Shown here: one piece after another, positions 14,025 to 36,760 of the stretch
How positions within the stretch are numbered: the stretch's first letter is position 1
Layout of the letters: every line of letters starts with the position of its first letter
NCBI GenBank assembly: GCA_964348825.1
Contig: CAYGDX010000001.1
Coordinates: 90,909-154,908, forward strand
DNA length: 64,000 bases
Reading direction: 5' to 3'
Origin: an uncultured Gammaproteobacteria bacterium
GTDB lineage: Bacteria; Patescibacteriota; Patescibacteriia; Veblenbacterales; UBA10138
Translations under genes and position numbers: made by a program
Notes under the pieces: generated by a model
Database searches by the model: none
What the model was told of the DNA's origin: nothing
The model's input: only the letters and a program-made list of their open reading frames with translations

Positions 14025-15674
14025 ATGAGAGAACTTTGGAGGGGAAAAAGGTATTGGTTTCAATTTTTTTGCCTTAGTTTAATAATTGGGGTAGGATTTT
14101 TGTTTTTTAATAATGTTTTTGATAATTTTGGGCAACAAATTGGCCAAAAAATTTCTGAATTCAATTTTTTTAAACCAGTCTTAGCACAAAATGCGGGAGT
14201 TTTTAAAGTTAAAGGCTGGGCGTGGAGCGGTACAACTGGCTGGATTTCGTTAAGTTGTGCTAATACTAATAATTGTTCTGGAGTTGGCGGATCAAGCTAT
14301 GATTTAGAAGTAAATAGTAATACTAAAAAAATTAGTGGTTTTGCTTGGTCAAGTAATTTAGGTTGGATTTGCTTTGGTAGTTCTTGTGATGGTAATTCAC
14401 CAGACGGTTTAATATCAGTAGCAAATTATTTATGTGAAGATACAGATGGCGATTGTTCAGCAGATAATTACAAAGCACCGATGATAGGTTGGGCTAAAAT
14501 AGTTAATTTAGGTAATAAGGGTTGGATATCGTTGAGTTGTAAAAATAAAATTAGTCCCGTAGATATCATTAATCATTGTTTGGAGCCCCTTCCTAACTAT
14601 GGCGTTGTAGTTAATTTTGAAGATGGTATTTTAGGCGCAAAAACTAATGCAACTTCAGATACTAATTGGGCTTGGCAATATGCTGGCGGTGGTGCAGGTA
14701 ATGCTTATGGTACAGGTTGGATACAATTTAATCCTGACACGGAAATTTTAGCACCATATTTACAAGCCCGAGGTGGCGATGTTTTTGCCAGAAAATTCAC
14801 TAGTTTTCTCCCACCACCAAAAGGTAAATATAATGCTCAGTATTTGATTCAGTCGCAAACAGGAATTAGTCGTTTTCGGGCTTGTATTGATGCTGGTGGT
14901 AATGCGATAGAAGGTTGTCGTTTTGGCACTTATAGTGCCTTGACGGTACCAGGAATAAAGCCAGTACAAGATACTATCAATAACCCTTATTCTTTTAAAT
15001 TAGGTCGCTTTGATTTTCATAACTTAGTAACACCAATAAATGGCACAAGTAATCGTAACCGTTATGGTCATTTATTAGTAAATACTCCGCCAGCGAATTT
15101 GAATATTTTATTAGATGATAAAATTTTAGAAAATAAAGTAATAAAAGTTAACGGTGACACTACAATAGGAGACATTACTCTTAACAATGGTGATACTATT
15201 GTTAAGAGTGGTGCTGGTACAATTGTTATTCAAGGTGATTTAAATATTAATGGTAATATAAATTATCAAAATATTTCAGGCAGTTTAGATTCAAAACAAT
15301 TGGCTTCGGTAGTTTGGATTGTGCTTGGCGATGTTAATATTGCACCCAATGTAACAGATGTGGCGGGTAATTTTATTATTTTAGGTAAAAGAGATATTGC
15401 AATTTGTGGAGGTGTTAACTTAGTTGGTGATCAGATACCACAAACATGTGGTTTATTTAATACCTGTAGTCCAATTGGTGATAGTTGTAAGGATTTTTCA
15501 TTAAGCATTACCGGTAGTGTATTTGCCCGACAGTTTTTGTTGAATCGCACTTATGTTGATAGAACTACCAGAGAACCATCGGAAAAGTTTACAGCCGATG
15601 GGCGAATGCAGTTGAATCCACCGCCCGGTTTTGCTGATTTTGCCAAAGGATTGCCGACGTTTAGTCGACAATAA
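14025..15674 (+). CDS. Hypothetical membrane-anchored/secreted protein with GW-rich repeats
   Basis: N-terminal TM (YWFQFFCLSLIIGVGFLFF). Repeated G-W-x-W-S-x(n)-GWI-x-x-S-C motifs. No known domain recognised. Confidence 0.4.
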   Translation: MRELWRGKRYWFQFFCLSLIIGVGFLFFNNVFDNFGQQIGQKISEFNFFKPVLAQNAGVFKVKGWAWSGTTGWISLSCANTNNCSGVGGSSYDLEVNSNTKKISGFAWSSNLGWICFGSSCDGNSPDGLISVANYLCEDTDGDCSADNYKAPMIGWAKIVNLGNKGWISLSCKNKISPVDIINHCLEPLPNYGVVVNFEDGILGAKTNATSDTNWAWQYAGGGAGNAYGTGWIQFNPDTEILAPYLQARGGDVFARKFTSFLPPPKGKYNAQYLIQSQTGISRFRACIDAGGNAIEGCRFGTYSALTVPGIKPVQDTINNPYSFKLGRFDFHNLVTPINGTSNRNRYGHLLVNTPPANLNILLDDKILENKVIKVNGDTTIGDITLNNGDTIVKSGAGTIVIQGDLNINGNINYQNISGSLDSKQLASVVWIVLGDVNIAPNVTDVAGNFIILGKRDIAICGGVNLVGDQIPQTCGLFNTCSPIGDSCKDFSLSITGSVFARQFLLNRTYVDRTTREPSEKFTADGRMQLNPPPGFADFAKGLPTFSRQ

Positions 15675-15860: not shown

Positions 15861-16925
15861 GTGTCTTTTTTTTCTAAAACTCGTTCTTATTTAGGCGTTG
15901 ATTTAGGTACTGCTTCCATTAAAATTGTGGAGCTGGAAAATCGTGCCGGCACACCTACACTTCTTACCTATGGCTTTGCCGAATTGCCAGTGGATGAAAT
16001 TAAATTTGATGTACACGAAACCGTAGCACGTACGGCTAAAACTGTAGCTAAAATTTGTGCCGAGTCGCACACTAAATCACGTAAAGTGATAGCGGCTTTG
16101 CCAACTTTTTCGGTTTTTAGTTCGGTAATTACACTGCCAGTAATGAATGAAAAAGAAGTTGGGCAAGCACTGACTTATGAAGCCAAAAAAATTATTCCTT
16201 TGCCGATTGAAGAAATGGTGCTCGATTGGAAAATTTTAAAAGATAAGGTAGGTGCGCCGGCTAGTAATAAAAAAGATAAAACTATGCGCGTGCTTCTCAC
16301 TGCCGCACCGCGCACTTTGGTAAAAAAATATCAAGATATTTTTCAAGCTGCCAACCTAGAATTACTATCGCTTGAAACCGAGGCCTTTGCGCTGGAGCGA
16401 TCACTGCTTGGTTCTGATCCGGCAGTAACATTACTACTTGATGTTGGCGCGCTCACTACTGATTTAGTAATTGTGGAAGATCATGTGCCAATTTTAAATC
16501 GCAGTATTGATGTGGGTGGAGTAACCGCTACTAAAGCCATTGCCCAGAGTTTGAATGTGAATGAACATCGGGCTGAACAATTCAAGCGCGATGTGGGTAT
16601 GATTTCGGGCGGGGCGGGCAGTGGTGGCGTGGGTAAAGTAATTGAAAATACTTTTTCACCAATCATTAATGAAATAAAATATGCGCTTTCACTTTACCGC
16701 GTGGAAAGCACTTCACCGCTTGAAAAAATAATTTTAACCGGAGGTTCAGCTTGGCTACCAAATTTATCTGATTATTTGGCTACACTTTTTCAAGTAAAAG
16801 TGATTATTGGTGATCCGTGGGCGGCGGTATCATACCCCACTGATATAAAAGGTGTACTACAAGAATTAGGTCCGCGTTTTGGTACGGCAGTAGGTTTAGC
16901 AATGCGGGAGATTAAGAGTAGCTAA
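15861..16925 (+). CDS. pilM: Type IV pilus assembly protein PilM (actin-like ATPase fold)
   Basis: GTG start. SYLGVDLGTASIKIVELE N-terminus and overall actin/FtsA-like PilM architecture. Confidence 0.8.
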   Translation: MSFFSKTRSYLGVDLGTASIKIVELENRAGTPTLLTYGFAELPVDEIKFDVHETVARTAKTVAKICAESHTKSRKVIAALPTFSVFSSVITLPVMNEKEVGQALTYEAKKIIPLPIEEMVLDWKILKDKVGAPASNKKDKTMRVLLTAAPRTLVKKYQDIFQAANLELLSLETEAFALERSLLGSDPAVTLLLDVGALTTDLVIVEDHVPILNRSIDVGGVTATKAIAQSLNVNEHRAEQFKRDVGMISGGAGSGGVGKVIENTFSPIINEIKYALSLYRVESTSPLEKIILTGGSAWLPNLSDYLATLFQVKVIIGDPWAAVSYPTDIKGVLQELGPRFGTAVGLAMREIKSS

Positions 16926-17011
16926 GTTTAAATTCTAATATCGAATATCGAAATTCGAAAAAATTTAAAATTAATTTAGGATTTCGGATTTAGTGCTTCG
17001 GATTTTAAACT

Positions 17012-17935
17012 ATGGATCCCAATTTATTACCTAATGAATTACGTGTGGGCGAAAAGGAAGAATTGTCACATCCGCCCCAACCAACATCGGTAAAGCCAGA
17101 TGCGATTTTATCATCTAAAGAGAAAGACAGGGTAATTGAGCTTGATATAAATGTAGGTTTGTGGTCAAAAATTAAATCTTGGTTTAATAAAGACGAAGTA
17201 CTAACTAGTGCGGATGACAAATCAGCGCTTGAAAAAGGTGAGGTTGATTTTGGTAAAACTTCGGCTGGTAAAATTTTAGGGATTCCTACCCATCATGGCG
17301 TACCACTTGGTGTAGTGCTCGATGTAAATTTATTGCCGGTTGAATCGCGCCCAATTGAAGAAGCCAAGCGTTATGGTGTGCATTTTTTAGCCGTGGCCGG
17401 AGCAGCTATTTTAGTAGTGATTATTGGTTATGCAATTTTACTAAGTTTAAAATCAGCTAAAGAAGCAGAATATGCCGATTTACAACGTGAAGCAGAAATT
17501 TTAACCACCGATATTACTGGTTTTAATGTCAAGCTTAATGAATTAAAATTAACTGGCCGGCGTATGAAGGTAATTACTGAAATTCTGAGTATGCGTAGCG
17601 ATTGGTTGAAGTTTTTTGATACCTTGGAAGGGTTGATAATGCCTAATGTAAGTTTCACTTCGCTATCGCTTCAATCATCAGGTAATTTTGTACTCGGGGC
17701 CGAAGGTAAAACTGTGAGTGATTTGGCTAAACAATTTTTGGTTTTTCAAGAGGGTAAAGATATTTGGGCGGAAGTGGAAATGGCCGGTGTGAGTTTGGGT
17801 AGTGGATTAGTTGAGGAAGATAGTGGATTAAGTTCTAGTGCTTCCGATTCTACGGCCAGTACAACTTTTGAATTAAAATTAAAACCAGGTTGGCTTCAGG
17901 CAGGAGAGAAAGCGATTGGTAAGAGTGAAGAGTAA
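17012..17935 (+). CDS. pilN: PilN-like type IV pilus inner-membrane assembly protein
   Basis: Position after pilM, single TM helix (FLAVAGAAILVVIIGYAILL) followed by a coiled-coil periplasmic region. Confidence 0.5.
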   Translation: MDPNLLPNELRVGEKEELSHPPQPTSVKPDAILSSKEKDRVIELDINVGLWSKIKSWFNKDEVLTSADDKSALEKGEVDFGKTSAGKILGIPTHHGVPLGVVLDVNLLPVESRPIEEAKRYGVHFLAVAGAAILVVIIGYAILLSLKSAKEAEYADLQREAEILTTDITGFNVKLNELKLTGRRMKVITEILSMRSDWLKFFDTLEGLIMPNVSFTSLSLQSSGNFVLGAEGKTVSDLAKQFLVFQEGKDIWAEVEMAGVSLGSGLVEEDSGLSSSASDSTASTTFELKLKPGWLQAGEKAIGKSEE

Positions 17936-18055
17936 GAGTTTTTCACTAGAACATTAGATCACTAGATCATAAGAACAAAAAGTTTTTTATTAATAATGTT
18001 CTAATGTTTAAATGTTCTAGTGTTCTAATGAATAAGATTTAGAATTTTAATTACT

Positions 18056-18655
18056 ATGCCTCCAGTTAAATCAAAAAATCAAGTAAGCAAATGGGAGCGT
18101 GCTTTGGAAAAATATTTTCTGTGGCTGGCGCTTGGTTTGTCGATATTAATTATTATTTTAGGGGTGTGGTTTTTGTGGCGTCCGGTTTATAATGAGTGGC
18201 AAGGCGGAGTAGATTTAAATAAAGAAAGAAATGAATTACAAGTGGCGCGAGCACGCTTCGAGGTTTTAAAAAAATTATTTACTGATTGGGAAAATCTAAA
18301 GGTGAAACCTGCGGGGCGTGATTTGCCTTTGATTTTACCAAGTGAGGCCGAGGTGCCTAATTTATTGGTTCAGCTTGAAGCCATAGCGCGCGATACTGGT
18401 TTTAAATTACAAGGTATTGCGGTGAGTGAAGCGAGTGGTAAGGGAACATCTCGTAAAGGTGAATCAGGTGCTACTACAATTTCCGGTGCGCGACCAATTA
18501 AAATCACACTTAGTTTAGATGGCGCTACGTACCCCAAAGTTAAAACATTGCTTAAGGCCTTGGATCAGGCTTGGCGTTTAATTCAGGTAGATAGTTTTAC
18601 GGTGGGGCGCGATAGTGCTTTGAGTTTAGAATTAACTGCTTATTATTTCCCTTAA
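18056..18655 (+). CDS. pilO: PilO-like type IV pilus assembly protein
   Basis: Single N-terminal TM (FLWLALGLSILIIILGVWFLW), coiled-coil plus C-terminal alpha/beta region. Synteny pilM-N-O. Confidence 0.5.
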   Translation: MPPVKSKNQVSKWERALEKYFLWLALGLSILIIILGVWFLWRPVYNEWQGGVDLNKERNELQVARARFEVLKKLFTDWENLKVKPAGRDLPLILPSEAEVPNLLVQLEAIARDTGFKLQGIAVSEASGKGTSRKGESGATTISGARPIKITLSLDGATYPKVKTLLKALDQAWRLIQVDSFTVGRDSALSLELTAYYFP

Positions 18656-18658
18656 ATT

Positions 18659-19000
18659 ATGTTAGTAGCTAAAAGTTTGCCAATTGGAAAAACCTTAACT
18701 ATGATTAGTGTGGTAGTTGTAGCGTTAGGTACAATTTTGTATTTGGTGTATACTAATTTTATAGATACTTCATCGGCACCGGTAAGTGATACACCAGTAA
18801 CTACTGGTGTATCAACACTTGAAATTAGCGCGGCTGAGGCCAAGTTTAAATTACCTAGTGGACAAGTTTTGGATAAAAATTTCTTTACCCTGCCGGCAGT
18901 TGAGGAATTATTTAATTTTGGTGATTTGCCAGTAACTGCTACACCTGTGAAGCGAGATGATCCTTTCGCCCCCTTGCCAAGTACAAATAAACGGCGGTAA
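18659..19000 (+). CDS. Hypothetical membrane protein (possible PilP analogue)
   Basis: 113 aa with N-terminal TM. Position after pilO. No sequence motif recognised. Confidence 0.3.
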   Translation: MLVAKSLPIGKTLTMISVVVVALGTILYLVYTNFIDTSSAPVSDTPVTTGVSTLEISAAEAKFKLPSGQVLDKNFFTLPAVEELFNFGDLPVTATPVKRDDPFAPLPSTNKRR

Positions 19001-19047
19001 AATAGAAATAGTTTAAAAATAACTTTTTAATTAAATAAATAAAATTT

Positions 19048-19599
19048 ATGAGTATGCGTTTTTCTAAAATAAATGGCTTTACCCTCGTAGAGCTTTTAGT
19101 CGTAATTGCCATTATTGGTATTTTGTCATCACTTTCAGTGGTGTCGTTAAACTCTGCTCGTGGCCGCGCGCGCGATGCTCAACGTTATAATGATTTAAGG
19201 CAATTATTTACCGCGATGACGCTTTATTATGATACTCAAGTATCTACTCCGCAATATCCCAGTATGAGCGGTTCTGAAGAGGATAAATGGACTAGTGATA
19301 ATGATACTGCGAGTTGGTGGAATGGTATAGCAGGGCCTAATAGATTTTTCCCTACAGTTTTGAAAGATCCTGGGATTGGCAATACATCTGCTTATTCGTA
19401 TGCTGTGCAAGCCGAAACAAGTGCTGGTAAGGGGGATCTGCGACAACATTATTGTGTTTATACAAAATTAGAAGGCGCAGATAATTATTTAATTGTAACC
19501 GAGAGTGGTTTAAAATCTAAAGAGGGAACCCCCGAATTTACAGATAATTCAACAGTTTGCGATTGTACACCAGGTTTATGTGCAGAAGCTGGTTCGTAA
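19048..19599 (+). CDS. Type IV pilin (class III signal peptide, N-methylation motif)
   Basis: NGFTLVELLVVIAIIGIL...ARDAQRYNDLRQ prepilin leader and conserved N-terminal helix. C-terminal Cys pair. Confidence 0.8.
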   Translation: MSMRFSKINGFTLVELLVVIAIIGILSSLSVVSLNSARGRARDAQRYNDLRQLFTAMTLYYDTQVSTPQYPSMSGSEEDKWTSDNDTASWWNGIAGPNRFFPTVLKDPGIGNTSAYSYAVQAETSAGKGDLRQHYCVYTKLEGADNYLIVTESGLKSKEGTPEFTDNSTVCDCTPGLCAEAGS

Positions 19600-19641
19600 T
19601 TTTTTAGAATTTTGATATTAGGATTTAGAATTTAATTCAGT

Positions 19642-20052
19642 ATGCCCAAAAAGCAACCCAGTGGCATAATTCTTCTTATAGTAATAGTTGGGGTGGCGGT
19701 TTTATTGGCCGCCACTTTTGTTTTAATTACTGTCGGACGTAAACAGAATTTGACCAAACGTGAGGCAATTCGTTTAGAAAACTTACGCTTGATTTCTCAA
19801 GCGCAGGAATTTTATTTTGACCGCTTCCAAAAATATGGCTCGTTTGAGGAGTTGATTAAGGCTCGTTTATTAGATGAAATTCCGCGTGACAACAAGAATG
19901 AAAAAGGTTATAATTTATATCGCAGTACTAAAGAGGATGAGTGGTGTGTGTGGTTAGAAATGGAGCAGCAAAATCCGCCGTATTTAAGCCTTGGCTCGCA
20001 CGGTCAAAAAAAATTAATAATACCGCCGATTGATTTAGAAACATGTAAGTAA
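19642..20052 (+). CDS. Pilin-like protein lacking canonical prepilin cleavage motif
   Basis: N-terminal TM plus KREAIRLENLRLISQAQEFYF, resembling the pilin N-terminal helix region. No G-F-T-L-[IV]-E motif. Confidence 0.3.
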   Translation: MPKKQPSGIILLIVIVGVAVLLAATFVLITVGRKQNLTKREAIRLENLRLISQAQEFYFDRFQKYGSFEELIKARLLDEIPRDNKNEKGYNLYRSTKEDEWCVWLEMEQQNPPYLSLGSHGQKKLIIPPIDLETCK

Positions 20053-20119
20053 AATCCGAATATCGAAATCAGAAATACAAAAACTTTGAACTATTGACTA
20101 ATAACTTTGAACTTAGTGT

Positions 20120-21874
20120 ATGGCTGACGAAGCAATCATGGCAAAATCAGGTAACACCGGTGATATTGGTGATTTTTTAGTTACCCAAAATATTTTAACC
20201 GTGGCGCGTTTAGCTGAATATAGAAAAATTGCACAAGCTGAACAGCGAGGCATTGAGGAAGTTTTAATGGAGCGTGCGGCGCTTACCCCTGAAGCACTAC
20301 TTAAAGCTAAAAGTGCTTTTTATGGATTACCAGCAGTTGATTTAACCCAACAAGCCGTGACTGAAATGGTGCTACGCTTAGTGCCACTTGAACTCGCCCA
20401 ATACTATCAATTAGTACCTTTCCGGCGTGACAACAACGACGTGTGGATTGCTTTGGTACATCCAGAAAATTATAAATCAATGGAAGCAGTTGATGTTTTA
20501 GGACGTCAGCACGGCTGGAAACCAAAATATGCGATTACCACTTCCACTTCGTTACTTAAAGTGCTTCGTCAATATAGTTCGCTTACTTCCGAAGTCGGTG
20601 AGGCCTTAAAAATGGCGGAAGATGACGATCAATCAGCCCTAAGGCAAGATGAAAATGTACAAGAATTTGAAGAAGTTTTAAAAGCCGCACCGGTGGCGAA
20701 AATGGTGGCCTCAATTCTCCGGCACGCGGTAGAAGGTGGTGCTTCGGATATTCATATTGAACCAGGCGATGCCGATAGTCGCGTGCGTTTTCGAGTTGAC
20801 GGCATTCTTCGTACCTCACTTACCTTACCGAAATATATTCACTCGGCGGTTATATCGCGTATTAAAGTACTAGCTAATTTAAAAATCGATGAAACCCGAC
20901 AACCGCAAGATGGTCGTATTCGTTTACGAGTGGTGGATAAAGTAATTGATTTTCGTATTTCCACTATGCCAGTAATTGGTAATGAAAAAGTGGTGATGCG
21001 TATTTTGGATCCAACGACCGGCGTGCGTACTTTTGAGGGTTTGGGTTTTACTGGTCAAAAATTACGCATCCTAAAAGAAGCAATTCAAAAACCGCATGGC
21101 ATGTTCTTAGTTACTGGGCCAACGGGTAGTGGTAAAACAACCACGCTTTACGCCGTGCTCAATATTTTAAATCGCGAAGAAGTAAATATTATTACACTAG
21201 AAGATCCAGTGGAATATTTTATGGGTGGTGTGAACCAATCGCAAGTGAACCCGGAAGTGGGTTATACTTTTGCCAATGGTCTTAGATCAATTCTTCGGCA
21301 AGACCCCGATATTATTATGGTTGGTGAAATTCGTGACTCGGAAACTGCGGAGCTTGCGATTCATGCTTCGCTCACTGGTCACATACTACTTTCAACTCTC
21401 CACACCAATGATGCGCCGGCCGCAATTTTGCGTTTAACCGATATGCACATTGAACCGTTTTTAATTGCCTCCACTGTGAATGTAATAATTGGTCAACGTT
21501 TGGTCAGAAAATTATGTGAAAGTTGCCGCAAACCCAGCACTCTGCCGCCAGAAATGCTTAAGAAAATTCAAGAATCGTTTGCTGGAATGGGCGCGGGAGC
21601 GAAAGAAGAAGTTCCAGCTGAACCGTGGACAACTTATGAAGCGGGTTCCTGCTCACACTGTGAAAATTCTGGTTACAGGGGTCGGGTGGCGATTACAGAA
21701 ATACTAGCCAATACGCCGGAATTGCAAAAAATAATTGCCGATGGCGCCAAGCCCCACGAACTAAAAGCTGAATTTGTACGCCAAGGTAGTACTAGTTTGA
21801 TGCAAGATGGATATTTGAAAGTGCTTACAGGTATGACATCGCTCGAGGAAGTGCTCACTGCGGCGCAGGACTAA
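20120..21874 (+). CDS. pilB: Type IV pilus assembly (extension) ATPase PilB / GspE family
   Basis: Walker A GPTGSGKTT, Walker B DPDIIMVGEIRD, His box GHILLSTLHTNDA, tetracysteine CESC...CSHC. 584 aa with N-terminal GspE-N domain. Confidence 0.9.
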   Translation: MADEAIMAKSGNTGDIGDFLVTQNILTVARLAEYRKIAQAEQRGIEEVLMERAALTPEALLKAKSAFYGLPAVDLTQQAVTEMVLRLVPLELAQYYQLVPFRRDNNDVWIALVHPENYKSMEAVDVLGRQHGWKPKYAITTSTSLLKVLRQYSSLTSEVGEALKMAEDDDQSALRQDENVQEFEEVLKAAPVAKMVASILRHAVEGGASDIHIEPGDADSRVRFRVDGILRTSLTLPKYIHSAVISRIKVLANLKIDETRQPQDGRIRLRVVDKVIDFRISTMPVIGNEKVVMRILDPTTGVRTFEGLGFTGQKLRILKEAIQKPHGMFLVTGPTGSGKTTTLYAVLNILNREEVNIITLEDPVEYFMGGVNQSQVNPEVGYTFANGLRSILRQDPDIIMVGEIRDSETAELAIHASLTGHILLSTLHTNDAPAAILRLTDMHIEPFLIASTVNVIIGQRLVRKLCESCRKPSTLPPEMLKKIQESFAGMGAGAKEEVPAEPWTTYEAGSCSHCENSGYRGRVAITEILANTPELQKIIADGAKPHELKAEFVRQGSTSLMQDGYLKVLTGMTSLEEVLTAAQD

Positions 21875-21912
21875 ATAATCATAATAACATTAGATCACTA
21901 GAACATTAGAAC

Positions 21913-22272
21913 ATGAGTCAAGAATTCAGAGAGCAGTTAAAAAAGAAAATGGACGAATATGTAAAATTAGTTTATCGCGTGACTAAAAATTATCCCCGCG
22001 ACGAGTTATATGGAGTAACTTCACAATTAAGAAGATCAACCCTATCCGTGATATTAAATTATTTAGAGGGTTATGCCAGGCGCCGAATTCCAACTTGCTA
22101 TCATTTTTGGGAAATATCTTATGGTTCGTTACAAGAAAGTAGATATTTATTAGATTTATCATTAAATGAAAATTATTTATTAATTGAAAATCACAAAACA
22201 TTAAGTGTTTTAGCTGATGAAATTAGTGCTATGCTCTGGCAATCCTTGAAGAATTTAGAAAAATACAAATAG
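21913..22272 (+). CDS. Four-helix-bundle protein (23S rRNA intervening-sequence protein family)
   Basis: SQLRRSTLSVILNYLEGYARRR matches the 'four helix bundle protein' family signature. Bracketed on both sides by family D repeats. Confidence 0.7.
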   Translation: MSQEFREQLKKKMDEYVKLVYRVTKNYPRDELYGVTSQLRRSTLSVILNYLEGYARRRIPTCYHFWEISYGSLQESRYLLDLSLNENYLLIENHKTLSVLADEISAMLWQSLKNLEKYK

Positions 22273-22307
22273 TTAATGTTTAAGTGTTCTAATGTTTTAA
22301 TGTTCAA

Positions 22308-23390
22308 GTGTTTATGTCCACCACCGACTCCTTAACCATCAATCGCTTGCTCACTGAAGCCGCAGAAAGGCAGGTATCTGACCTTCATTTTACTGTTGGT
22401 GCAAATCCAGCCGCGAGGCGTGACGGCAAGCTTGAAACATTAAACGCCGAGCCACCCGTCACCGAAGAATTTATGAAAGGGTTGGTCGAATTTTTTATTC
22501 CGGAGAATAAGAGAGCTCGTTTTGCCAGCGCGCAAACTTTAACCTTAACTTATAATTTTGGCACACGCGCTCGTTTTCGGGTGCACGGAAGCTACCAAAA
22601 GGGTTATCCAGCTTTAGATTTACATTATGTACCATGGCAAGCGCCCGACGTTACAACTATGGGTTTGCCTAAAATTTTACTTAATTCTATAAAAGAAAAA
22701 GAGGGATTGATTCTTTTGAGTGGTTTGCAGGGGTCAGGCCGTAGTGCTACGCTCGCGGCGCTACTTGATAATATTAATCATACACAAGCTAAACATATTG
22801 TAACGATTGAAGATCCAGTGGAGTATTTACTGACCAACGATAAATCATTTATCAAACAAAAAGATGTCGGTGATGATATTCCAAGTGTGGAAGATGCTTT
22901 GGGTGGCCTTAAAGATGAAGATGTAGATGTGCTAGCGATTGATGTACCGCTTAATATGGCGGCTTGGCGCGAAATTTTTACACGGGCGCGGAGCGGCACT
23001 TTAGTTTTTGTGGCGATGGAAGCCGATACTTCAGTGCGGGCGCTAGAATCACTTATTTTAAGTTGGCCGGGTGCTGAAGCTGATAGTTTAAAACAATTAT
23101 TAAGCGAAACACTTCTCATTGCTACTTCACAGCGCTTAGTGCCACGCGTTGGCGGTGGTAAGGTAATGGTAGTAGAATGTTTACTTGGTAATACGCCGGT
23201 TAAATCATTAATTCGCGATGGTAAGATTTTACAACTCCAAAATGTACTGGAATTATCGCGTGAAGATGGTATGGTGTCACTCGAAAAAAGATTGTCTGAT
23301 TTAGTAAAAACTGGAGAAATTACACAAGAAGATGCAGTAGCTCACGCTGTGAACAAAGAGGTGATTGGGTCGATGTTGCGGGTGAAGTAA
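22308..23390 (+). CDS. pilT: PilT-like retraction-ATPase homolog with degenerate catalytic motifs
   Basis: PilT-length GspE-family core. Walker A is GLQGSGRSAT (Lys to Arg, Pro to Gln). Walker B region DEDVDVLAIDVP lacks the catalytic Glu. His-box GTLVFVAMEA lacks the His. Confidence 0.7.
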   Translation: MFMSTTDSLTINRLLTEAAERQVSDLHFTVGANPAARRDGKLETLNAEPPVTEEFMKGLVEFFIPENKRARFASAQTLTLTYNFGTRARFRVHGSYQKGYPALDLHYVPWQAPDVTTMGLPKILLNSIKEKEGLILLSGLQGSGRSATLAALLDNINHTQAKHIVTIEDPVEYLLTNDKSFIKQKDVGDDIPSVEDALGGLKDEDVDVLAIDVPLNMAAWREIFTRARSGTLVFVAMEADTSVRALESLILSWPGAEADSLKQLLSETLLIATSQRLVPRVGGGKVMVVECLLGNTPVKSLIRDGKILQLQNVLELSREDGMVSLEKRLSDLVKTGEITQEDAVAHAVNKEVIGSMLRVK

Positions 23391-23641
23391 TTTTTAGGGT
23401 GTAGCGTGTAGGGTGTAGTTCGTCATTGCGAGCTTCAGCGAAGCAATCCCTAGTAAATCCCCAAATCCCAATCCCTAAGATTGAATTTTAAATTATAAAT
23501 TTTAAGTCAATTTTTAATTAAAACATTTAGTTTTTGATTAAAAACCCGTAAAGGTCTCGTGGAGACCCACGCGTTTCTTTACGAGATTTAAAATTAAAAA
23601 TTTAGTTATTTTTAGAAATTAGATATTAGAAATTTTCGTTC

Positions 23642-24850
23642 ATGTCCTTATTCTCCTACGAAGCCAAAGATCTCGAAGGCCGTGCCTTAAAAGGCATGGT
23701 TGATGCGGCATCGCATGCCGCTGCCGTGGAAATTTTAACCGACAAAGGCCTTACCCCAATTACAGTCGAAGAAAAAAAGGTGAGTCGTTTGCAATTTTTA
23801 TTTGGCAATCAAATTTCGCGCATTAAGATCAAAGATATTGTAGTATTGTCGCGTCAGCTTTCGGTGATGGCTTCTGCCACTGTACCAATTGTGCAAGCAC
23901 TTAGAATTTTAGAAAAACAAACCGCCAATCCTAAACTTAAAGTAATAATTTCCGAAATTGCCGATGAAGTAGAAGGTGGTGCCAAATTTTCCTCTACGCT
24001 GGCCAAATATCCCGATGTGTTTTCCGACTTTTATATCAATATGGTGGCGAGCGGTGAAACCTCAGGTAAGCTCGATGAAGTGCTGAATTATTTAGCAGAT
24101 GAACAAGAAAAAAATTACGATATGATTAGTAAAATTCGCGGGGCGATGATTTATCCGGCTTTTATTTTGGGTGGGTTACTTTTAGTTGGCGCGGTGATGA
24201 TGATTTTCGTGGTGCCGAAACTCACTTCAATTTTAGTGGAATCAGGCGTGGCCCTGCCACTTTCTACACGAATCCTAATTGGCTTTAGTAATTTTTTAAG
24301 AAATTTTTGGTGGTTATTTTTAATAATGCTGGTGGGCGGGGGAATTGGTTTTCGTTATGGTGTAAAAACTCCAAAAGGAAGGCACTTGTGGCATTTAATT
24401 CAGCTTAAAATTCCGGTGGTTGGCACAATTTATCAAAATATTTATTTAGTGCGCTTTACTCGTTCAATGTACACGCTAATTGTTGGTGGTGTGCCTTTAA
24501 CTCGCAGTTTAGCCATCGTTTCCGATGTGGTGGGTAATGCTGTATTTAAACAAATTATTGATGAAACAATTAAAGAGGTAGAAGATGGCAATTCCATTGC
24601 CACTGTGTTTTCACAAACCAAAGTAATTCCTTCAATGGTATCACAAATGATGATTGTGGGTGAAAAAACTGGGCGACTCGAGGAAGTATTTAAACGTTTA
24701 TCCGACTTTTATACTCGCGAAGCTAATAATTTAGTGGCCAATTTAGTAACCTTGCTTGAGCCAATGGTGATGCTTGTAATGGGTGTATCAGTGGGGTTTA
24801 TGGTTTCGGCGATACTGTTGCCTATGTATAGGTTGTCCTCCGGCGCTTAG
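23642..24850 (+). CDS. pilC: Type IV pilus inner-membrane platform protein PilC (GspF family)
   Basis: 402 aa, two GspF-type repeats with three TM segments. Typical PilC topology and motifs. Confidence 0.85.
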   Translation: MSLFSYEAKDLEGRALKGMVDAASHAAAVEILTDKGLTPITVEEKKVSRLQFLFGNQISRIKIKDIVVLSRQLSVMASATVPIVQALRILEKQTANPKLKVIISEIADEVEGGAKFSSTLAKYPDVFSDFYINMVASGETSGKLDEVLNYLADEQEKNYDMISKIRGAMIYPAFILGGLLLVGAVMMIFVVPKLTSILVESGVALPLSTRILIGFSNFLRNFWWLFLIMLVGGGIGFRYGVKTPKGRHLWHLIQLKIPVVGTIYQNIYLVRFTRSMYTLIVGGVPLTRSLAIVSDVVGNAVFKQIIDETIKEVEDGNSIATVFSQTKVIPSMVSQMMIVGEKTGRLEEVFKRLSDFYTREANNLVANLVTLLEPMVMLVMGVSVGFMVSAILLPMYRLSSGA

Positions 24851-24894
24851 AGTAAAATCCTAAATCCTAAACCCTAAATTCTAAACAATATCAA

Positions 24895-25263
24895 ATGACA
24901 GAAAATCAAAATTCAAAACAGTATAATTTAGAAGATAGGACACTTTGTTTTGCTAAAGAAATTGGTATTTATGTTAATAAATTGCCGTTTACAGTGCCTA
25001 ATAAGGAATACGGTAAGCAGTTAGTGCGTTCCGCGAGTTCGGTAGGCGCAAATTATCTTGAAGCTAATGAAGCATTAAGCAAAAAAGATTTTTTAATGCG
25101 GATTAAAATTTCTCGTAAAGAAGCTAAAGAAACTCGCTTTTGGCTACAATTAACCGAGCCATTACCAGAAATGAATAGCGCTAGAGATAAATTTATTCAA
25201 GAAATTACTGAATTAATGAAGATTTTTGGAGCAATTATAGAAAAATCTAAACCTAATGTTTAA
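24895..25263 (+). CDS. Four-helix-bundle protein (second copy)
   Basis: VRSASSVGANYLEANEALSKKDFLMRIKISRKEAKETRFWLQL matches the same family as 21913-22272. Confidence 0.7.
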   Translation: MTENQNSKQYNLEDRTLCFAKEIGIYVNKLPFTVPNKEYGKQLVRSASSVGANYLEANEALSKKDFLMRIKISRKEAKETRFWLQLTEPLPEMNSARDKFIQEITELMKIFGAIIEKSKPNV

Positions 25264-25382
25264 TGTTTTATAATTTTGGATTTGTTTAGTATTTAGATAT
25301 TAGAATTTAGGATTTAAATAAAACGCCATTGTGTACTTATTTGCCTAGTGTTATAATTATATCGTCAAATAGAATATTATAA

Positions 25383-25922
25383 ATGAAAGGGGGTGAGACA
25401 ATGAACATTCGTAAAGGCTTTACGTTGATAGAATTATTGGTGGTGATTGCCATCATAGGCGTCTTGTCCACCCTAGCGGTGGTGTCGTTTCAAGGGGCAA
25501 GAGGAAAGGCAAGAGATGCTCAACGTTTAAGTGCGGTAAAAGCTCTTCAACAAGGCTTGGAATTTTATTATAATGATAATGATAGTAGTTATCCTCTAGC
25601 GCATACCACTGCTATTAAATTATCTAATGATACTGCTAAGACGAATTGTCTTGACAGTAATGGATTTAAGGATGGAAGTACAACAACACCATGTGTGGAT
25701 CCTATATATTTAAAGACCATAAATGATGATCCATCACCAGGAGTTTTGTGGTATTATCTGAGTAATGGAAGTGATACTATACCAGCAACTAAATATGCTA
25801 TAGCTGTTAAGATGGAAGGCAATACTAATCCATATAAAGTGGGGTGGAATTGTATGCTTAATGATGGATCCTTAGGTGTAGTAACAGAAACTAATGATGT
25901 GCCAGCTTGTACAATACCATAA
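25383..25922 (+). CDS. Type IV pilin (major pilin candidate)
   Basis: KGFTLIELLVVIAIIGVLSTLAVVSFQGARGKARDAQR prepilin leader/helix. Own rho-independent terminator downstream. Confidence 0.8.
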   Translation: MKGGETMNIRKGFTLIELLVVIAIIGVLSTLAVVSFQGARGKARDAQRLSAVKALQQGLEFYYNDNDSSYPLAHTTAIKLSNDTAKTNCLDSNGFKDGSTTTPCVDPIYLKTINDDPSPGVLWYYLSNGSDTIPATKYAIAVKMEGNTNPYKVGWNCMLNDGSLGVVTETNDVPACTIP

Positions 25923-25940
25923 TAATTTTTAAAACATTTA

Positions 25941-25979
25941 ACCCTCTTCCGTCCACACGGGGGAGGGTTTTTGTTTTTA
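25941..25979 (+). terminator. Rho-independent terminator after pilin gene
   Basis: aaccctc-ttccgtccacacgggg-gagggtt followed by tttttgttttt. Confidence 0.65.
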
Positions 25980-26274
25980 TGGTATGATTAGTGATAGATT
26001 GGGTGTTAATGAGCAGTTGTCATTGCGAGTGAGTCATCAGACGAGCGACGATTTGTCCGCCGTAGCTTTAGCGAAGGTGGAAGCAATCTATCAAAATCAC
26101 TAATAACTAATTCCTAATTTCTAAAAATTCCCAAGACCCAAATCCCAAAATTTAGACATTAGTCATTAGATATTTTTAGAAATTAGATATTAGACATTAG
26201 AAATTTATTTTTTAGAGATTGCCACGCCCTCGCTCTTTTCGCTCGGGCTCGCAATGACATAACACTCTTACTCT

Positions 26275-27102
26275 ATGCTCTTACTAATCTTCATCTTCGG
26301 CCTCTGTCTCGGCAGTTTTTTAAACGTCCTCATTCTCCGCCTAAAAGACGACAAGTCAATTCTCGGTCGTTCGCAGTGTCCAAAGTGTTTAAGGCAACTT
26401 AAATGGTTTGAAAATATTCCACTACTTTCTTTTATTTTTTTACGCGCGAAATGTGCTTCGTGTAATCAACCAATCTCTTGGCAATATCCTTTAGTAGAAT
26501 TTACGAGCGGGGTTTTGTGGGTTACATCCTACTTTGTCATTGCGAGCCAAGCGAAGCAATCCCTCGTTTTAGCAACAGAGATTGCCACGTCGTCCGCTTC
26601 GAGCGTCCTCCTCGCAATGACACAAAACGATTGGCTGGCTATGTTTACTTTTGGTGTATTCGTAACCATTTTACTCATTCTTTTTGTTTTTGACTTTCGT
26701 TGGTACATTTTACCTGATCAAATTACCATTCCTGCCATCGTTATCACCATAATTTTACAATTACTACTCGGCGTTTCCATTATTAATTTACTTATCGCAG
26801 GATTATCTGGTGCGGCTTGGTTTGGCGCGCAATATTTTGTATCAAAAGGTAAATGGGTGGGTGATGGTGATATTCGCCTTGGCGCTTTAATTGGTTTAAT
26901 GCTTGGCACTTGGCAGTTACTTTTAACCACTTTTTTTATCGCTTATATTGGTGGCGCCATTATTGCCGTTATTTTATTGTTACTAGGCAAAGTAAAACGT
27001 GGGGCGAAACTGCCAATGGGAGCGTTTTTGACAACAGCAACGATAATTGGGCTGATGTATGGTAAAATAATATGGGAATGGTATATAGGATTAATATGGT
27101 GA
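26275..27102 (+). CDS. pilD: Prepilin peptidase PilD (A24 family) carrying an in-frame repeat insertion
   Basis: N-terminal CxxC-x21-CxxC zinc domain (CPKC...CASC), A24 core with GDGDIRLG Asp motif. Residues VIASQAKQSLVLATEIATSSASSVLLAMTQN are encoded by a family A repeat. Confidence 0.8.
   Translation: MLLLIFIFGLCLGSFLNVLILRLKDDKSILGRSQCPKCLRQLKWFENIPLLSFIFLRAKCASCNQPISWQYPLVEFTSGVLWVTSYFVIASQAKQSLVLATEIATSSASSVLLAMTQNDWLAMFTFGVFVTILLILFVFDFRWYILPDQITIPAIVITIILQLLLGVSIINLLIAGLSGAAWFGAQYFVSKGKWVGDGDIRLGALIGLMLGTWQLLLTTFFIAYIGGAIIAVILLLLGKVKRGAKLPMGAFLTTATIIGLMYGKIIWEWYIGLIW
26535..26622. repeat. Family A repeat (tgtcattgcgag..agcaatc..ctcgcaatgaca) inserted in-frame within pilD
   Basis: Same inverted-repeat module as intergenic copies (e.g. 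4146-4185, 53824-53929). Reading frame of pilD is uninterrupted. Confidence 0.75.
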
Positions 27103-27242
27103 TTGAATCACTAATCACTAATTCCTAATATCTAAAAATCACCAAGATCCAAACCTCAATCCCAAAATTTAGTCATTAGACATTAGTCATTTTTAGAAAT
27201 TAGAGATTAGTTATTAGACATTATATAAGTTAGTACATAATC

Positions 27243-27842
27243 ATGTTTAGTTTAAATTGTCAAAAACATAGCGCTGGATTCACTTTGTTAGAGCTAACTA
27301 TATCCATTGGCATTTTTATGATGATTGGCGGAATGGTAATGGTGAATTTTCGTGCTGGGCAATATTCTGATGAACTTCAAGCCGGTGCCAAAGCAGTGGA
27401 GAATGCCGTACGTGAAGCCCAAGCCGCGGCCATTGGCGGGCAGGAGGTGTGTGTTAATGCTGATAGCAGTAAATTCGCACCCTTAGGTGGATTTGGATTG
27501 AATATCGCGGCTGATAATACTGCACTGTGGTTTGGGGATTGTGATTATGGAACTGATTCTGATAATGATCCACCACGTAATTATGTATATAGTCCTGACC
27601 CTAATATTGATGTGATTGTGCAAAATATTGATTTGGGATCTAATATTAAGATAAATACAAAAACTCCAGCAGATGGCGATATAATGAATTTAGTTTTTAG
27701 TTCTGGCAGTGAGGTTGCTAAAATAAATGGTAGTAATCCAACCACAGTAAATCAGGTAGTAGTAACTTTAGAACACAAAAAAACAGCGAAGAGAAAAACA
27801 GTAGTAATTAATTTATTAAGCGGGCAAGTGTTTATTGAGTGA
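27243..27842 (+). CDS. Minor pilin / pseudopilin (GspH/FimT-like)
   Basis: SAGFTLLELTISIGIFMMIGGMV prepilin-type N-terminus. Confidence 0.6.
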   Translation: MFSLNCQKHSAGFTLLELTISIGIFMMIGGMVMVNFRAGQYSDELQAGAKAVENAVREAQAAAIGGQEVCVNADSSKFAPLGGFGLNIAADNTALWFGDCDYGTDSDNDPPRNYVYSPDPNIDVIVQNIDLGSNIKINTKTPADGDIMNLVFSSGSEVAKINGSNPTTVNQVVVTLEHKKTAKRKTVVINLLSGQVFIE

Positions 27843-27962
27843 TGATTTTTATTAGAACATTAAATCATTAGAACATAAAAACAAAATTGATAAAATGTTT
27901 CAGTGTTCTAGTGTTTTAATGAATATACTTCGGATTTAAAAACAACTAGTAGGTATTTTATT

Positions 27963-28664
27963 ATGTATAATTCTAAGAACCATCCTTCCGGCCAAGGTCT
28001 TCTCGAGGCGACTCTCGCCATCGGCATTATTATGGTGGGTCTTGGGGCTCTTATGGCTATGACTTTGCAAAGTACCCAAGCCACTACAGTAAGTAGTCAG
28101 CAATTAGTGGGGCAGAATTTAGCGCGTGAGGCTATTGAAGTGGCGCGTAATATTCGGGATAGTAATTGGTTGGCGATTGGTAACAGCGCACCAACCGGTG
28201 TGACGTGGGATAAGGATTTAGTGCCAACTGGTAATAATCAAGCGGCAGTAATTGTTTTTTTACCGCCGGATGCTGGTGCTGCAACTTTTGAAATTAAATT
28301 TATTACCTTTGTTGGCGCTAACGCTTCATCACGAAAAGAGGAGGACATTGATGCTTTGGATGAACCAAAAATACATATGTATCGCGGTACAGTCGGTGAA
28401 GGTTATTTATGGCGACAGAGTGACGTAGGGTTGGGCGCAAATTATACAGATACTAATTTTCGTCGCATTTTAGCTCTTGATCCGGTTTGTCAGCCCGAGA
28501 CGGGTGACGCTTATGTTAATGTCGCTAAAGCAGATTGTAATGGGACTGATACTAAAATCGGCATCCGAGCCGAAGCGCGCGTTTCCTGGCCTCGTAGCGG
28601 ACTTTTGGGCGGTTCGGGTAGAAGTAGCGTGAGTATGGTGGAGTACTTATATAACTGGAAATAG
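27963..28664 (+). CDS. Minor pilin-like protein (PilV/PilW-like)
   Basis: GQGLLEATLAIGIIMVGLGALMAM hydrophobic N-terminal helix with a G-x-x-L-E prepilin-like motif. Confidence 0.5.
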   Translation: MYNSKNHPSGQGLLEATLAIGIIMVGLGALMAMTLQSTQATTVSSQQLVGQNLAREAIEVARNIRDSNWLAIGNSAPTGVTWDKDLVPTGNNQAAVIVFLPPDAGAATFEIKFITFVGANASSRKEEDIDALDEPKIHMYRGTVGEGYLWRQSDVGLGANYTDTNFRRILALDPVCQPETGDAYVNVAKADCNGTDTKIGIRAEARVSWPRSGLLGGSGRSSVSMVEYLYNWK

Positions 28665-28839
28665 TTTAACGAGTAAGTATTATTGTCATTCTGAGCCACA
28701 GTGAAGAATCTTTAAATTTTGAAAATTTCCAATGACCAAGTTCCAATTTCCAATAAATTTTCAATGATTTAAAATTTTCAAACATTGGAACTTTATTGGG
28801 ATTTTGAACTTTGAACTTGGGATTTAAACAACTTAGATT

Positions 28840-29424
28840 ATGCTTCATCTAAATCACAAAAAATATAGCACTGGATTTACTCTAATGGAAATCGTCATAG
28901 TTCTCGCTCTATTTGCTCTTGCCAGCATATTGATTGCCGGGATTTTTGTGAATATGCAAACTACTCAGCGGCGGGTACGGGATAATCAGGAATTAATTAC
29001 CGATGCGCGTTATCTATTAGAAGTAATCGCGCGTGAAGTGCGCTCGGATTTTATTGATTATAGTGGATTAGTGAGTGGCAAATTATCATTAAAATCGGCC
29101 AGTGGAGTTGATATAGTAATAGAGCATAAAACAGGAGATGGTTGTACAGCACCTGCAAAATGTGTCGTTGATATTAGTCGTGATGGAAATGCCGCTCAAT
29201 TGAATTCTAAAAATTTAGCAGTTGAACATTTGCAATTTTACGTTTCACCATTAACTGACCCGTTTCCCACAGGTACTCCCGGTGTAATCCAAACCACACC
29301 CGATCAACAACCAAGAGTCACAATTGTCCTAAAAGTTAGCAATGAGCCAAAAAAACCTCGTGCCGCTGAACGCAAGGCAATTTATTTACAAACCACTGTT
29401 TCGGCGAGAGCGTATGTTAGATAA
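28840..29424 (+). CDS. Minor pilin / pseudopilin
   Basis: STGFTLMEIVIVLALFALASILIAGIF prepilin N-terminus. Confidence 0.6.
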   Translation: MLHLNHKKYSTGFTLMEIVIVLALFALASILIAGIFVNMQTTQRRVRDNQELITDARYLLEVIAREVRSDFIDYSGLVSGKLSLKSASGVDIVIEHKTGDGCTAPAKCVVDISRDGNAAQLNSKNLAVEHLQFYVSPLTDPFPTGTPGVIQTTPDQQPRVTIVLKVSNEPKKPRAAERKAIYLQTTVSARAYVR

Positions 29425-29562
29425 TTTAAAAATAAAAAATCAAAATGCAAAATGACAGATTAAAATTTAAAATAAATTATAACTTACTAATATCTAAAGA
29501 AAAATTACTACCCAATAATTTTTTCATTTTACATTGTCATTTTTATTTTTGATTTTTACATT

Positions 29563-30429
29563 TTGATTTATAAGATGTTCAAATTTTCAATTTTCAATTC
29601 CAATACTTTTTTTCCTCGCGGTAATGTACTTTTACTCGCCCTCCTTATGCTTGCCGGAGGTATGGTGGGCACTTTGGCTTTGACCTCAATTGTTACCAGC
29701 CAACTTCGCCAGTCGCGCGTGATTGATGCGGGTATGATTGCGCACTACGAAGCCGAATCGGCTTTGGAAGAAGGTTTGTATAGTGCTCGTAAATTAGAAG
29801 AGATTGATATTGCAAGCGCTCCAGATTGTTCAGCTAATGCAACAACTGGTGATTTGGGTTGTACTACAGTAAATTTTAGGCAGGAATTTGCGGGATCAGC
29901 GGATGTTTTGGTGTCATCTCTAAAAACCGACGAAACATTTGAATTAGATGTTAGTGAATCATCAATTATTGGTTTGACTTTAGAATGGTATCCAGCTCAC
30001 GATTATAATTTTGGACCACAATTAGCTATTACTTATGTTAATAATGAAAATGGTGTACCAACAATAACTCGCCCGGTGAATGGAGTATCTGGAGCGCCAT
30101 TCAATTGTGTTTCTAGTGACCCAGATACAATTTGTGAAAATCCATCATCCGCCTTAGACTTAGAAAATAATACCGAAAAAGTTCGTTTTCGTGCTCTATC
30201 TCCACAAAGTGTGGCAGCGTTAGATGGTGGTGATATAAAAAATTTAAAAATTAGACCAGTTTGTTTGGCGGGTGTTAGCCCATGTGTATTTAATAAGTAT
30301 GTTAAATTAAAAACCCGTGGTAAAAAAGGTGATGTGGGTTATACTGTGCAAGTTAGCATACCTACTTCCGTACCAGCTTATGGTATTGCTGATTATGTAT
30401 TATTCTCGGAGCAGGAAGTTAAGAAGTGA
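29563..30429 (+). CDS. PilX-like minor pilin
   Basis: RGNVLLLALLMLAGGMVGTLALTSIVTSQLRQS resembles the PilX N-terminal domain. Confidence 0.4.
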   Translation: MIYKMFKFSIFNSNTFFPRGNVLLLALLMLAGGMVGTLALTSIVTSQLRQSRVIDAGMIAHYEAESALEEGLYSARKLEEIDIASAPDCSANATTGDLGCTTVNFRQEFAGSADVLVSSLKTDETFELDVSESSIIGLTLEWYPAHDYNFGPQLAITYVNNENGVPTITRPVNGVSGAPFNCVSSDPDTICENPSSALDLENNTEKVRFRALSPQSVAALDGGDIKNLKIRPVCLAGVSPCVFNKYVKLKTRGKKGDVGYTVQVSIPTSVPAYGIADYVLFSEQEVKK

Positions 30430-36534: not shown

Positions 36535-36590
36535 GAGTTTTTTAAAAATCCGAAATTCGAATATCTAAATCCTAAATAAATTCCAAAAGT

Positions 36591-36760
36591 CGTGCGGCCT
36601 CGTCGTAGGGTTTGTACAGAGCGCAAGGCAAACGAGCGTCCGGTTCGGGCGTGCTGTGGTAGTTGTGCATAGCCCGAACCAGCTCGTTTGGCGAGCACTG
36701 TTCAAACCCGAAGACACAGGCCGCGATTCTTGGTTACTTCTATTAAAGAAGTAACAAAAT
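36591..36760 (+). repeat. Structured about-170-nt element (family C), forward orientation; possible small ncRNA or cruciform-forming MITE
   Basis: Long stem caaacgagcgtccggttcgggc...gcccgaaccagctcgtttg plus terminal hairpin ggttacttct-attaa-agaagtaacc. Related copies at 37667-37853 (reverse), 39899-40170 (with about 100-nt hairpin insertion), 52622-52850 (diverged). Confidence 0.5.

Follow-up and report, generated by a model that had tools for sequence, protein, structure and literature searches.

In the Patescibacterium Nanosynbacter lyticus TM7x, the PilT ATPase of the type IV pilus (T4P) is reported to have well-conserved Walker A and Walker B boxes (PMC11623550), and a reconstruction of the candidate phyla radiation (CPR) lists PilT simply as the retraction ATPase (PMC11809585). 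PilT and the extension ATPase PilB compete for the same socket on the pilus platform (PMC11656802). In PilT, the role of catalytic base falls to E204, while the γ-phosphate is coordinated by H229/H230, and in Pseudomonas aeruginosa the E204A and H229A substitutions, singly, abolish twitching (PMC6858323). In Vibrio cholerae, PilT mutated at K136A/E204A still works as a platform partner: retraction proceeds via PilU, and extension of the MSHA pilus is also supported (PMC6821130; PMC11656802). Because these mutants keep function, an ATPase-dead PilT is not equivalent to an absent one. The stretch of contig CAYGDX010000001.1 analyzed here (64 kb; hereafter the window) encodes, at 22314-23390 within a T4P operon, a PilT-like protein in which the Walker A, Walker B, and His-box motifs are all degenerate. 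The reading that we favor, to which, taken as a whole chain, we give an even chance, is that this gene is the PilT orthologue of its lineage, that it has lost hydrolysis, and that selection keeps it as a nucleotide-binding, non-motor partner of the platform.

The PilT-like open reading frame (ORF) probably starts at the ATG at 22314, giving a protein of 358 aa, rather than at the GTG at 22308 chosen in the initial annotation of the sequence, because the protein is then as long as entry P0001 of the database and because MSTTD is the common start of all homologues. Aquifex PilT (2ewv) aligns over residues 9-356 (E=1e-59), and PilT4 of G. metallireducens and PilT of P. aeruginosa match with E=2e-47 and E=4e-46, respectively. 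The PilT/PilU profile TIGR01420 is matched over positions 2-341 of 343, that is, over the full-length two-domain PilT architecture, which consists of an N-terminal PAS-like domain and a RecA-like C-terminal domain and lacks the N1D domain of the PilB type; the score of 254.8 bits lies below the curated cut-off of 319.1 bits. PF00437 (T2SSE) scores above its gathering threshold (44.5 vs 24.9 bits) but only over residues 123-178, from Walker A to the Asp box, so that the match spans 56 residues, compared with 392 residues in PilB. An AlphaFold2 model of the protein is confident (pLDDT 93, pTM 0.90), and Foldseek superimposes it on ATP-bound PilT4 (6ojx) with a TM score of 0.92-0.94 and a root-mean-square deviation of 1.6-1.7 Å. 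Structural modeling, one of the checks that had been proposed for the initial annotation, upholds the PilT fold.

Motifs were read in a residue-level alignment to Aquifex PilT and in an alignment of 120 sequences. Sixteen homologues (P0002-P0017), 45-58% identical to the window protein, form a monophyletic group in a neighbor-joining tree and together with the window protein (P0001) define a clade of at least 17 members. The motifs described as degenerate in the initial annotation of this PilT-length paralogue are confirmed and read GLQGSGRSAT, VLAIDVPLN, and VFVAMEAD, and alignment to characterized PilT, also suggested there, bears out the losses residue by residue. In Walker A, GLQGSGRSAT stands in place of the canonical GPTGSGKST, with arginine for the lysine equivalent to K136 of P. 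aeruginosa PilT (PaPilT). Walker B reads VLAIDVPLN instead of VIFVGEMRD, with the catalytic glutamate (PaPilT E204) changed to valine, glycine to aspartate, and arginine to leucine. In the His box, GTLVFVAMEAD replaces GHLVFGTLHTN, and both histidines (PaPilT H222 and H229) are gone, to threonine and glutamate, respectively. The Asp box, TIEDPVEY, is retained, with E166, D167, and P168 unchanged in every clade member. QKDVG aligns to QREVG of canonical PilT, and the PilT-specific AIRNLIRE region reads PVKSLIRDG, with L299 and R301 conserved as in canonical PilT and an asparagine-to-serine change fixed in the clade.

Setting the clade (17 members) against 114 PilTs with fully canonical motifs separates what is kept from what is lost. 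All four catalytic residues are present in 114/114 canonical proteins, while 17/17 of the closest homologues share the substitutions, and the clade-wide motifs are GSGR[TS]TT, xD[VA]PxP, and xEA[DE][ST]T. Both sets keep the P-loop glycines, T145/T146, the Asp box, Q182, and R183; the SD.H, G..P..R, and RFR (R87, R89) elements of the N-domain, as well as R104; and SQRL.P..GGG followed by a basic residue, together with L299 and R301. In the clade, K143R, E184D, and G210D are changes, and the losses comprise the catalytic glutamate, R213, E226/T227/H229, H236/T237, and the whole QTxDRIxDxF segment behind the His box. In PilT4, Arg-83 and Arg-278 are located at the interface of the packing unit, beside the site where nucleotide binds (PMC6858323); their equivalents, mapped by eye from motif position, are apparently retained in the PilT-like protein. 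Since the charge in the P-loop is always arginine and never a neutral residue within the clade, phosphate binding is argued to be retained as well. In RecA-fold ATPases, a lysine-to-arginine change at this position, of which RecA K72R is an example, typically leaves binding intact but stops turnover, and by this analogy the arginine speaks against hydrolysis here. The overall pattern is the one expected if nucleotide binding and subunit packing were still used and γ-phosphate sensing and hydrolysis were not. The protein also differs from PilU, which has intact Walker A, Walker B, and His-box motifs and is encoded downstream of a canonical pilT: here the motifs are degenerate, and no canonical pilT is adjacent.

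Several observations indicate that these substitutions belong to a conserved gene. Four contigs from independent assemblies encode exactly the same protein, so assembly error does not account for the substitutions, and the ORF is full-length and intact in every lineage seen. In the clade alignment (n=17), mean column identity is 71%, and R143, E166, D167, and P168 are invariant, as are positions specific to the clade (e.g., W218). The Walker A arginine is encoded by CGT or CGC, and by AGG in a more distant lineage; the use of these codons across lineages implies that the arginine has been kept through synonymous change. At orthologous loci, identity of the PilT-like protein is 48-54%, compared with 68-70% for PilB, 70-71% for PilC, and 62-64% for PilM; PilD, at 55%, is similar to it, and PilN, PilO, and the pilins are lower (31-46%). 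Among the proteins of the T4P machine, PilT is usually conserved best, and this order is reversed here. Judging from these values, constraint on the protein is partly relaxed but clearly present. The initial annotation had proposed a probably inactive or regulatory PilT; this proposal stands and gains strength from conservation and orthology, the loss of the residues being a conserved and selected state that fits such a protein better than a pseudogene.

The neighborhood of the gene identifies it as the counterpart of canonical CPR pilT. Three clade relatives (L084-L086) were located by exact-protein look-up and a fourth (L094) by a clade-specific DNA pattern; L087-L090 represent sister lineages whose protein is 35-41% identical to that of the window. 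Assemblies GCA_043806155.1 and GCA_964567515.1 belong to the clade of the window, GCA_964594455.1 and GCA_016294925.1 carry intermediate forms, and MEK7497134.1 is a cluster mate of the window protein at 90% identity. The window, L084-L086, and L094 share the order of an ORF without assigned function, pilM, pilN, pilO, a small ORF, (a pilin gene), pilB, the PilT-like gene, and pilC, continued by a pilin gene, pilD, four minor pilin genes, and ligA. L087-L090 share this neighborhood, including ligA-gatC-gatA, in the order pilB, a single-domain response regulator, a partly degenerate pilT, and pilC. Canonical-pilT loci of the CPR (L005, L007, L010, L011, and L015), from sources that include metagenome-assembled genomes (MAGs) labeled Taylorbacteria, Kaiserbacteria, and Saccharibacteria, show an identical array in which pilT takes up this slot. 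The order pilM...pilB-(REC)-pilT-pilC...pilD...ligA-gatA, where REC is the receiver-domain (response regulator) gene, is therefore common to canonical and degenerate loci, and the synteny conserved from pilM to ligA-gatA shows that the PilT-like gene, in the ancestral slot between pilB and pilC, is the positional orthologue of canonical CPR pilT.

The sister lineages occupy intermediate positions. In L087-L090, the His box is lost (H to R and H to N/D/T), the Walker A residue is K or R, and S-E, S-D, or S-G replaces G-E in Walker B. Their REC gene lies at 9558-9995 in L087, 9496-9912 in L088, 9586-9996 in L089, and 2807-3181 in L090. A REC gene, fitted tightly between pilB and pilT, also precedes canonical pilT in L007, L010, L011, L015, L025, and L030, and these six loci with pilB-REC-pilT led to rejection of the idea that only degenerate PilTs are accompanied by it. 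The window lacks the REC gene, as does the fully degenerate clade, the most degenerate form seen, in which 0/4 catalytic residues remain. As far as motif content can tell, degeneration is stepwise, with intermediate loss in the sister lineages. At 7795-9553 of L087, pilB is called as a 465-aa ORF (no domain match) and a 130-aa T2SSE fragment, and the split points to a frameshift in this MAG or to faulty assembly.

The breadth of the phenomenon was gauged with a profile run against 1.84 billion representatives of clusters (50% identity), in which 86 single-domain proteins were found among the best 150. Of the four catalytic residues, 57 of these representatives keep one or none and 12 keep two, whereas 16 are fully canonical; in the 57 degenerate clusters the Walker A residue is arginine in 39 and lysine in 15. 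By this count, degenerate PilT is a large and diverse family of at least 57 clusters and not the oddity of one genome. Long proteins (480-1024 aa) also rank high in the search, among them P0122-P0130 (700-1024 aa), which have two tandem PilT-family ATPase domains; the notion that these tandem proteins join one active domain to one dead domain was rejected, as both halves look largely canonical where both could be located, and the proteins are therefore uninformative about heteromers. The strict clade is rare: in Joint Genome Institute (JGI) metagenomes, two true loci were recovered, L092 (on the same contig as L084) and L094, and L091 and L093 from the same pattern search proved to be chance matches. 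A scan of genome contigs with the clade alignment, which supplied the canonical comparison loci, returned only canonical PilT loci at no more than 36% identity, with none of the clade among the matches listed. No description of a naturally degenerate PilT or PilT pseudo-ATPase was found in a literature search.

Whether the lineage has another retraction motor bears directly on how the loss is to be read. The initial annotation held that the degenerate PilT is the only one, which is upheld for the 64-kb window and the flanks of the relatives but is conjectural for the genome as a whole. With tblastn, no second T2SSE-type ATPase besides pilB and the PilT-like gene was detected in the window, and there is none in the ±10 kb around L084-L086 or in the whole 14.6-kb contig L094. 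No second PilT-family gene occurs in the fetched flanks of L087-L090 (±10 kb where the contig allows; L090 is short), and no other PilT homologue on the source contig (469,265 bp), of which the window makes up approx. 14%, appears among the best 120 of 3447 matches. As had also been noted at the outset, a secretin is missing: no diderm-type PilQ was found among the 40 window ORFs scanned against Pfam. To our knowledge, Patescibacteria have no outer membrane, and the missing secretin is therefore expected and uninformative.

From the residues that are retained, the PilT-like protein may still form PilT-like hexamers, bind nucleotide, and compete with PilB for docking on the PilC/PilM platform, without acting as a motor. 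It would then serve as a non-motor switch or clutch that displaces PilB and, given that PilB and PilT compete for one socket, would end extension. Once PilB is displaced, the pilus might undergo slow, motor-independent depolymerization or be held static, and forceful retraction of the PilT type would be absent unless another active ATPase were recruited. The initial annotation had inferred that pili retract by another route; stated more broadly, retraction or regulation of the pili probably does without the usual motor in this lineage. More tentatively, a sizeable and ancient branch of Patescibacteria could run its main T4P-1-type pilus without any retraction motor, PilT having become a nucleotide-sensing pseudo-ATPase that gates the platform and the pili either staying extended as tethers for attachment to host cells or retracting only passively, which we consider possible but doubtful. 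Along such a branch, the order of loss would have been the His box, then lysine to arginine in Walker A, and then the catalytic glutamate together with the linked receiver gene.

Four points weigh against the favored reading. Hexamer formation, nucleotide binding, and PilC docking are read from retained residues only. The protein evolves faster than PilB and PilC, which shows that some constraint has been relaxed. New acidic residues are conserved at two places, D210 (the classical position of the Walker B aspartate) in 16/17 and residue 238 in 17/17 clade members, so residual or rewired catalysis is possible. Finally, an intact pilT or pilU may lie elsewhere in the genome.

This last point leads to a reading that we hold to be rather unlikely, in which the dead PilT is an adaptor that docks on the platform and recruits an intact hexamer of the PilT or PilU type encoded elsewhere. 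It has a direct precedent in V. cholerae, where, given an active PilU, retraction is still supported by PilT with K136A, E204A, or both changes but not after deletion of pilT (PMC6821130), and the window, as a small part of its contig, leaves room for such a gene. However, no second PilT-family gene was found either in the window or in the fetched flanks of four clade and four intermediate relatives, CPR genomes are small, and in TM7x, the best-studied CPR member, the sole reported retraction ATPase belongs to the syntenic locus, the second pilus locus having none (PMC11623550). The conserved acidic residues could instead belong to an ATPase that is still active but rewired, a real and perhaps slow retraction motor, using the P-loop arginine, D210 as the Walker B aspartate, and E236 or D/E238 to activate water. 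The intact P-loop, Mg-binding Thr/Ser, and Asp box fit this proposal, as does the strict conservation of the nucleotide site, which suggests continued use. Yet four catalytic elements are gone together, and the GEMRD arginine and the stretch that follows the His box have disappeared with them; at position 236, clade members may have K, D, A, or V in place of the glutamate; the wider degenerate family has no consistent replacement residue; and, as set out above, a Walker A lysine-to-arginine change abolishes turnover in RecA-fold ATPases. A single E204A or H229A substitution already kills PilT function in vivo (PMC6858323), and we judge rewired activity to be improbable. The faster evolution of the gene and its TIGR01420 score below the cut-off could also be signs of a functionless, decaying relic or of an assembly artefact. 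Such an origin is hard to reconcile with an ORF that is full-length in every lineage and conserved in operon position, with the column identity and the clade-invariant W218 and R143, with synonymous turnover at the arginine codon, and with a confident fold prediction and identical sequence in four assemblies, and it can be almost discounted. A hydrolysis-dead but selected platform partner thus remains the reading that we favor.

The operon that houses this protein is a complete monoderm-style T4P operon, forming one + strand gene array at 15861-30429 according to Pfam/NCBIfam family searches; all genes and ORFs of this and the next paragraph lie on the + strand. All genes listed in the initial annotation (pilM/N/O, two pilin genes, pilB, pilC, pilD, and four minor pilin genes) are present, and the monoderm/CPR type IVa-like set of PilB, PilC, PilM, PilD, and pilins with class III signal peptides is found in this one locus. 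The array begins with pilM, which encodes the actin-like platform protein (15861..16925; PF11104 PilM_2, E=1.6e-42). The next gene, in the pilN position (17012..17935), encodes 307 aa with one transmembrane segment and has no family match, being placed by its conserved position after pilM. A pilO-like gene (18056..18655) matches PF04350 PilO below the cut-off (E=0.003) and likewise has a conserved position. A small membrane protein of 113 aa follows pilO (18659..19000); it has no family match, is named from its conserved position, and has homologues in the same place in L084-L087 and L094. The first pilin gene (19048..19599; PF07963 N_methyl, E=1.2e-7) encodes the class III signal peptide FTLVELLVVIAIIG, and after it comes a 136-aa ORF with a hydrophobic N-terminus (19642..20052), for which there is no credible family match and which has homologues in L084, L085, and L094. 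The extension ATPase gene pilB (20120..21874) includes an MshEN N-terminal domain (PF00437, 442 bits; PF05157; TIGR02538, 567 bits), and its product is canonical: GPTGSGKTT, GEIRD, and LHTNDA, which had been reported earlier, are all readable. The degenerate PilT orthologue (22314..23390), with GSGR, IDVP for GEMR, and EAD for HTN, is followed by the platform protein gene pilC (23642..24850; PF00482 T2SSF, E=1.6e-60, two repeats), a second pilin gene (25383..25922; PF07963 N_methyl, E=1.2e-8), and pilD, encoding the A24 prepilin peptidase (26275..27102; PF06750 and PF01478). Four minor-pilin-like genes complete the array: the first (27243-27842) and third (28840-29424) have N_methyl matches, the second (27963-28664) has a weak match to TIGR02523 PilV, and the fourth (29563-30429) has no family match; the order of all four is kept in relatives.

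Upstream of pilM lies a conserved ORF of 549 aa (14025..15674) without a Pfam or NCBIfam match. Homologues with 35-38% identity occupy this position in L084-L086, and L087 and L089 have longer ones; the ORF measures 549-688 aa in the window clade and approx. 1400 aa in the sisters (28-38% identity), where the long versions occupy 247-4506 of L087 and 331-4485 of L089. It may be an accessory or surface protein of the pilus locus. The operon also contains two four-helix-bundle ORFs, at 21913-22272 and 24895-25263, that were absent from the first account. The first belongs to an inserted cassette between pilB and the PilT-like gene (21880..22302; PF05635, E=5.6e-23; TIGR02436), which is flanked by 29-nt imperfect inverted repeats (21880-21908 and 22274-22302, 83% complementary) and is missing from the corresponding gap in L084 and L086. 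The second cassette, behind pilC (24855..25315; PF05635, E=2.8e-13; TIGR02436), is flanked by imperfect inverted repeats of 41 nt. The ORFs of both cassettes, which sit in intergenic gaps of the pilus operon, are members of the 23S_rRNA_IVP/TIGR02436 family with weak similarity to bAvd, and because such ORFs fill other gaps of the operon in L084-L086, the cassettes look like small mobile or intervening-sequence (IVS)-like elements.

Further features of the window were recorded outside the operon. Downstream of ligA/gatA, three consecutive DsbA-like thioredoxin genes are followed by the gene for prolipoprotein diacylglyceryl transferase, Lgt (35794-39496), and the DsbA-like genes may be relevant to disulfide bonds of cysteine-containing pilins. 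On the - strand, 11006-12649 encodes SdrD_B/CarboxypepD_reg repeats with a terminal Por_Secre_tail domain (the C-terminal sorting domain of type IX secretion); such a protein is unexpected for a Patescibacteria genome, and a similar gene occurs beside the pilus locus in L085 (1-785). A small winged-helix protein of the PaaX_M/Cas2-like type is encoded at 13274-13816 of the window, at 1806-2327 of L084, and at 1648-2169 and 15558-16124 of L085; the gene recurs beside the pilus locus and, in L085, within it. Two ORFs of 923 and 1658 aa without a Pfam match (40473-43244 and 43960-48936) precede an M23 peptidase gene (48946-49890). The RNA genes detected in the window are a tmRNA (55027-55408, 72.3 bits) and a single tRNA-Asp (39619-39696), with no others.

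When pilT turns up in a CPR genome, retractile pili, twitching, and DNA uptake are routinely deduced from it (e.g., PMC11809585). If a whole branch of Patescibacteria carries only a hydrolysis-dead PilT in its main pilus operon, such deductions go too far there. In the databases, the nearest proteins bear the label "Patescibacteria group bacterium"; all cultivated Patescibacteria are episymbionts (PMC11623550), and the earlier suggestion that the bacterium is possibly host-associated is supported by its membership in this group. If the branch does carry only such a PilT, the tether between episymbiont and host may, in this branch, be a static or passively retracting pilus. The protein would also be a natural separation-of-function allele that could show the platform role of PilT apart from ATP burning, a role that has so far been addressed only via engineered Walker-box mutants; competition with PilB, adaptor function, and the licensing of passive retraction could all be approached with it. 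The finding currently rests on inference from sequence, according to which the protein resembles a PilT-family platform partner but lacks the catalytic features of PilT/PilU retraction ATPases.

The closest described relative is the canonical PilT of Patescibacteria T4P locus one, e.g., that of N. lyticus TM7x. The window locus corresponds to this TM7x "T4P locus one", because CPR loci have the same array and the same pilT slot. Canonical CPR PilT and the window protein agree in length and two-domain fold, in the slot between pilB and pilC and the pilM...pilD...ligA-gatA neighborhood, and in the Asp box, the P-loop glycines, RFR, SD.H, and SQRL..GGG. They differ at the catalytic motifs, where the fetched canonical CPR loci read G[HQ]GK[ST]T, GEMR[DN], and LHTN and the window protein reads GSGRSA, IDVPLN, and MEAD; moreover, many canonical and intermediate loci have a receiver-domain gene between pilB and pilT, which the window clade lacks. 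The engineered dead PilT of V. cholerae (K136A, E204A) is the nearest functional parallel, as it is dead for hydrolysis yet still acts on the pilus machine, with effects on both extension and retraction (PMC6821130; PMC11656802). Those mutants, however, are laboratory point changes that need a neighboring active PilU, whereas the loss described here is natural, multiple, and clade-wide, and no PilU-like gene accompanies it in the window or locus. PilT-independent retraction in Neisseria and V. cholerae and the bifunctional CpaF of Tad pili offer possible models of an alternative route (bioRxiv 10.1101/497933; PMC12019362). In such motor-independent or single-motor systems, PilT is lacking or has been deleted, whereas the window lineage keeps an apparently dead PilT under selection. 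This retention, unlike the situation in systems without PilT, argues that the dead protein does something.

A more distant parallel is provided by ArlH/FlaH, the RecA/KaiC-like partner of the archaellum motor ATPase ArlI, which has an incomplete catalytic site. The likeness is one of functional analogy alone, to a nucleotide-binding, non-hydrolyzing or poorly hydrolyzing RecA-fold modulator of a type IV filament motor; ArlH/FlaH is no homologue of PilT and comes from another family.

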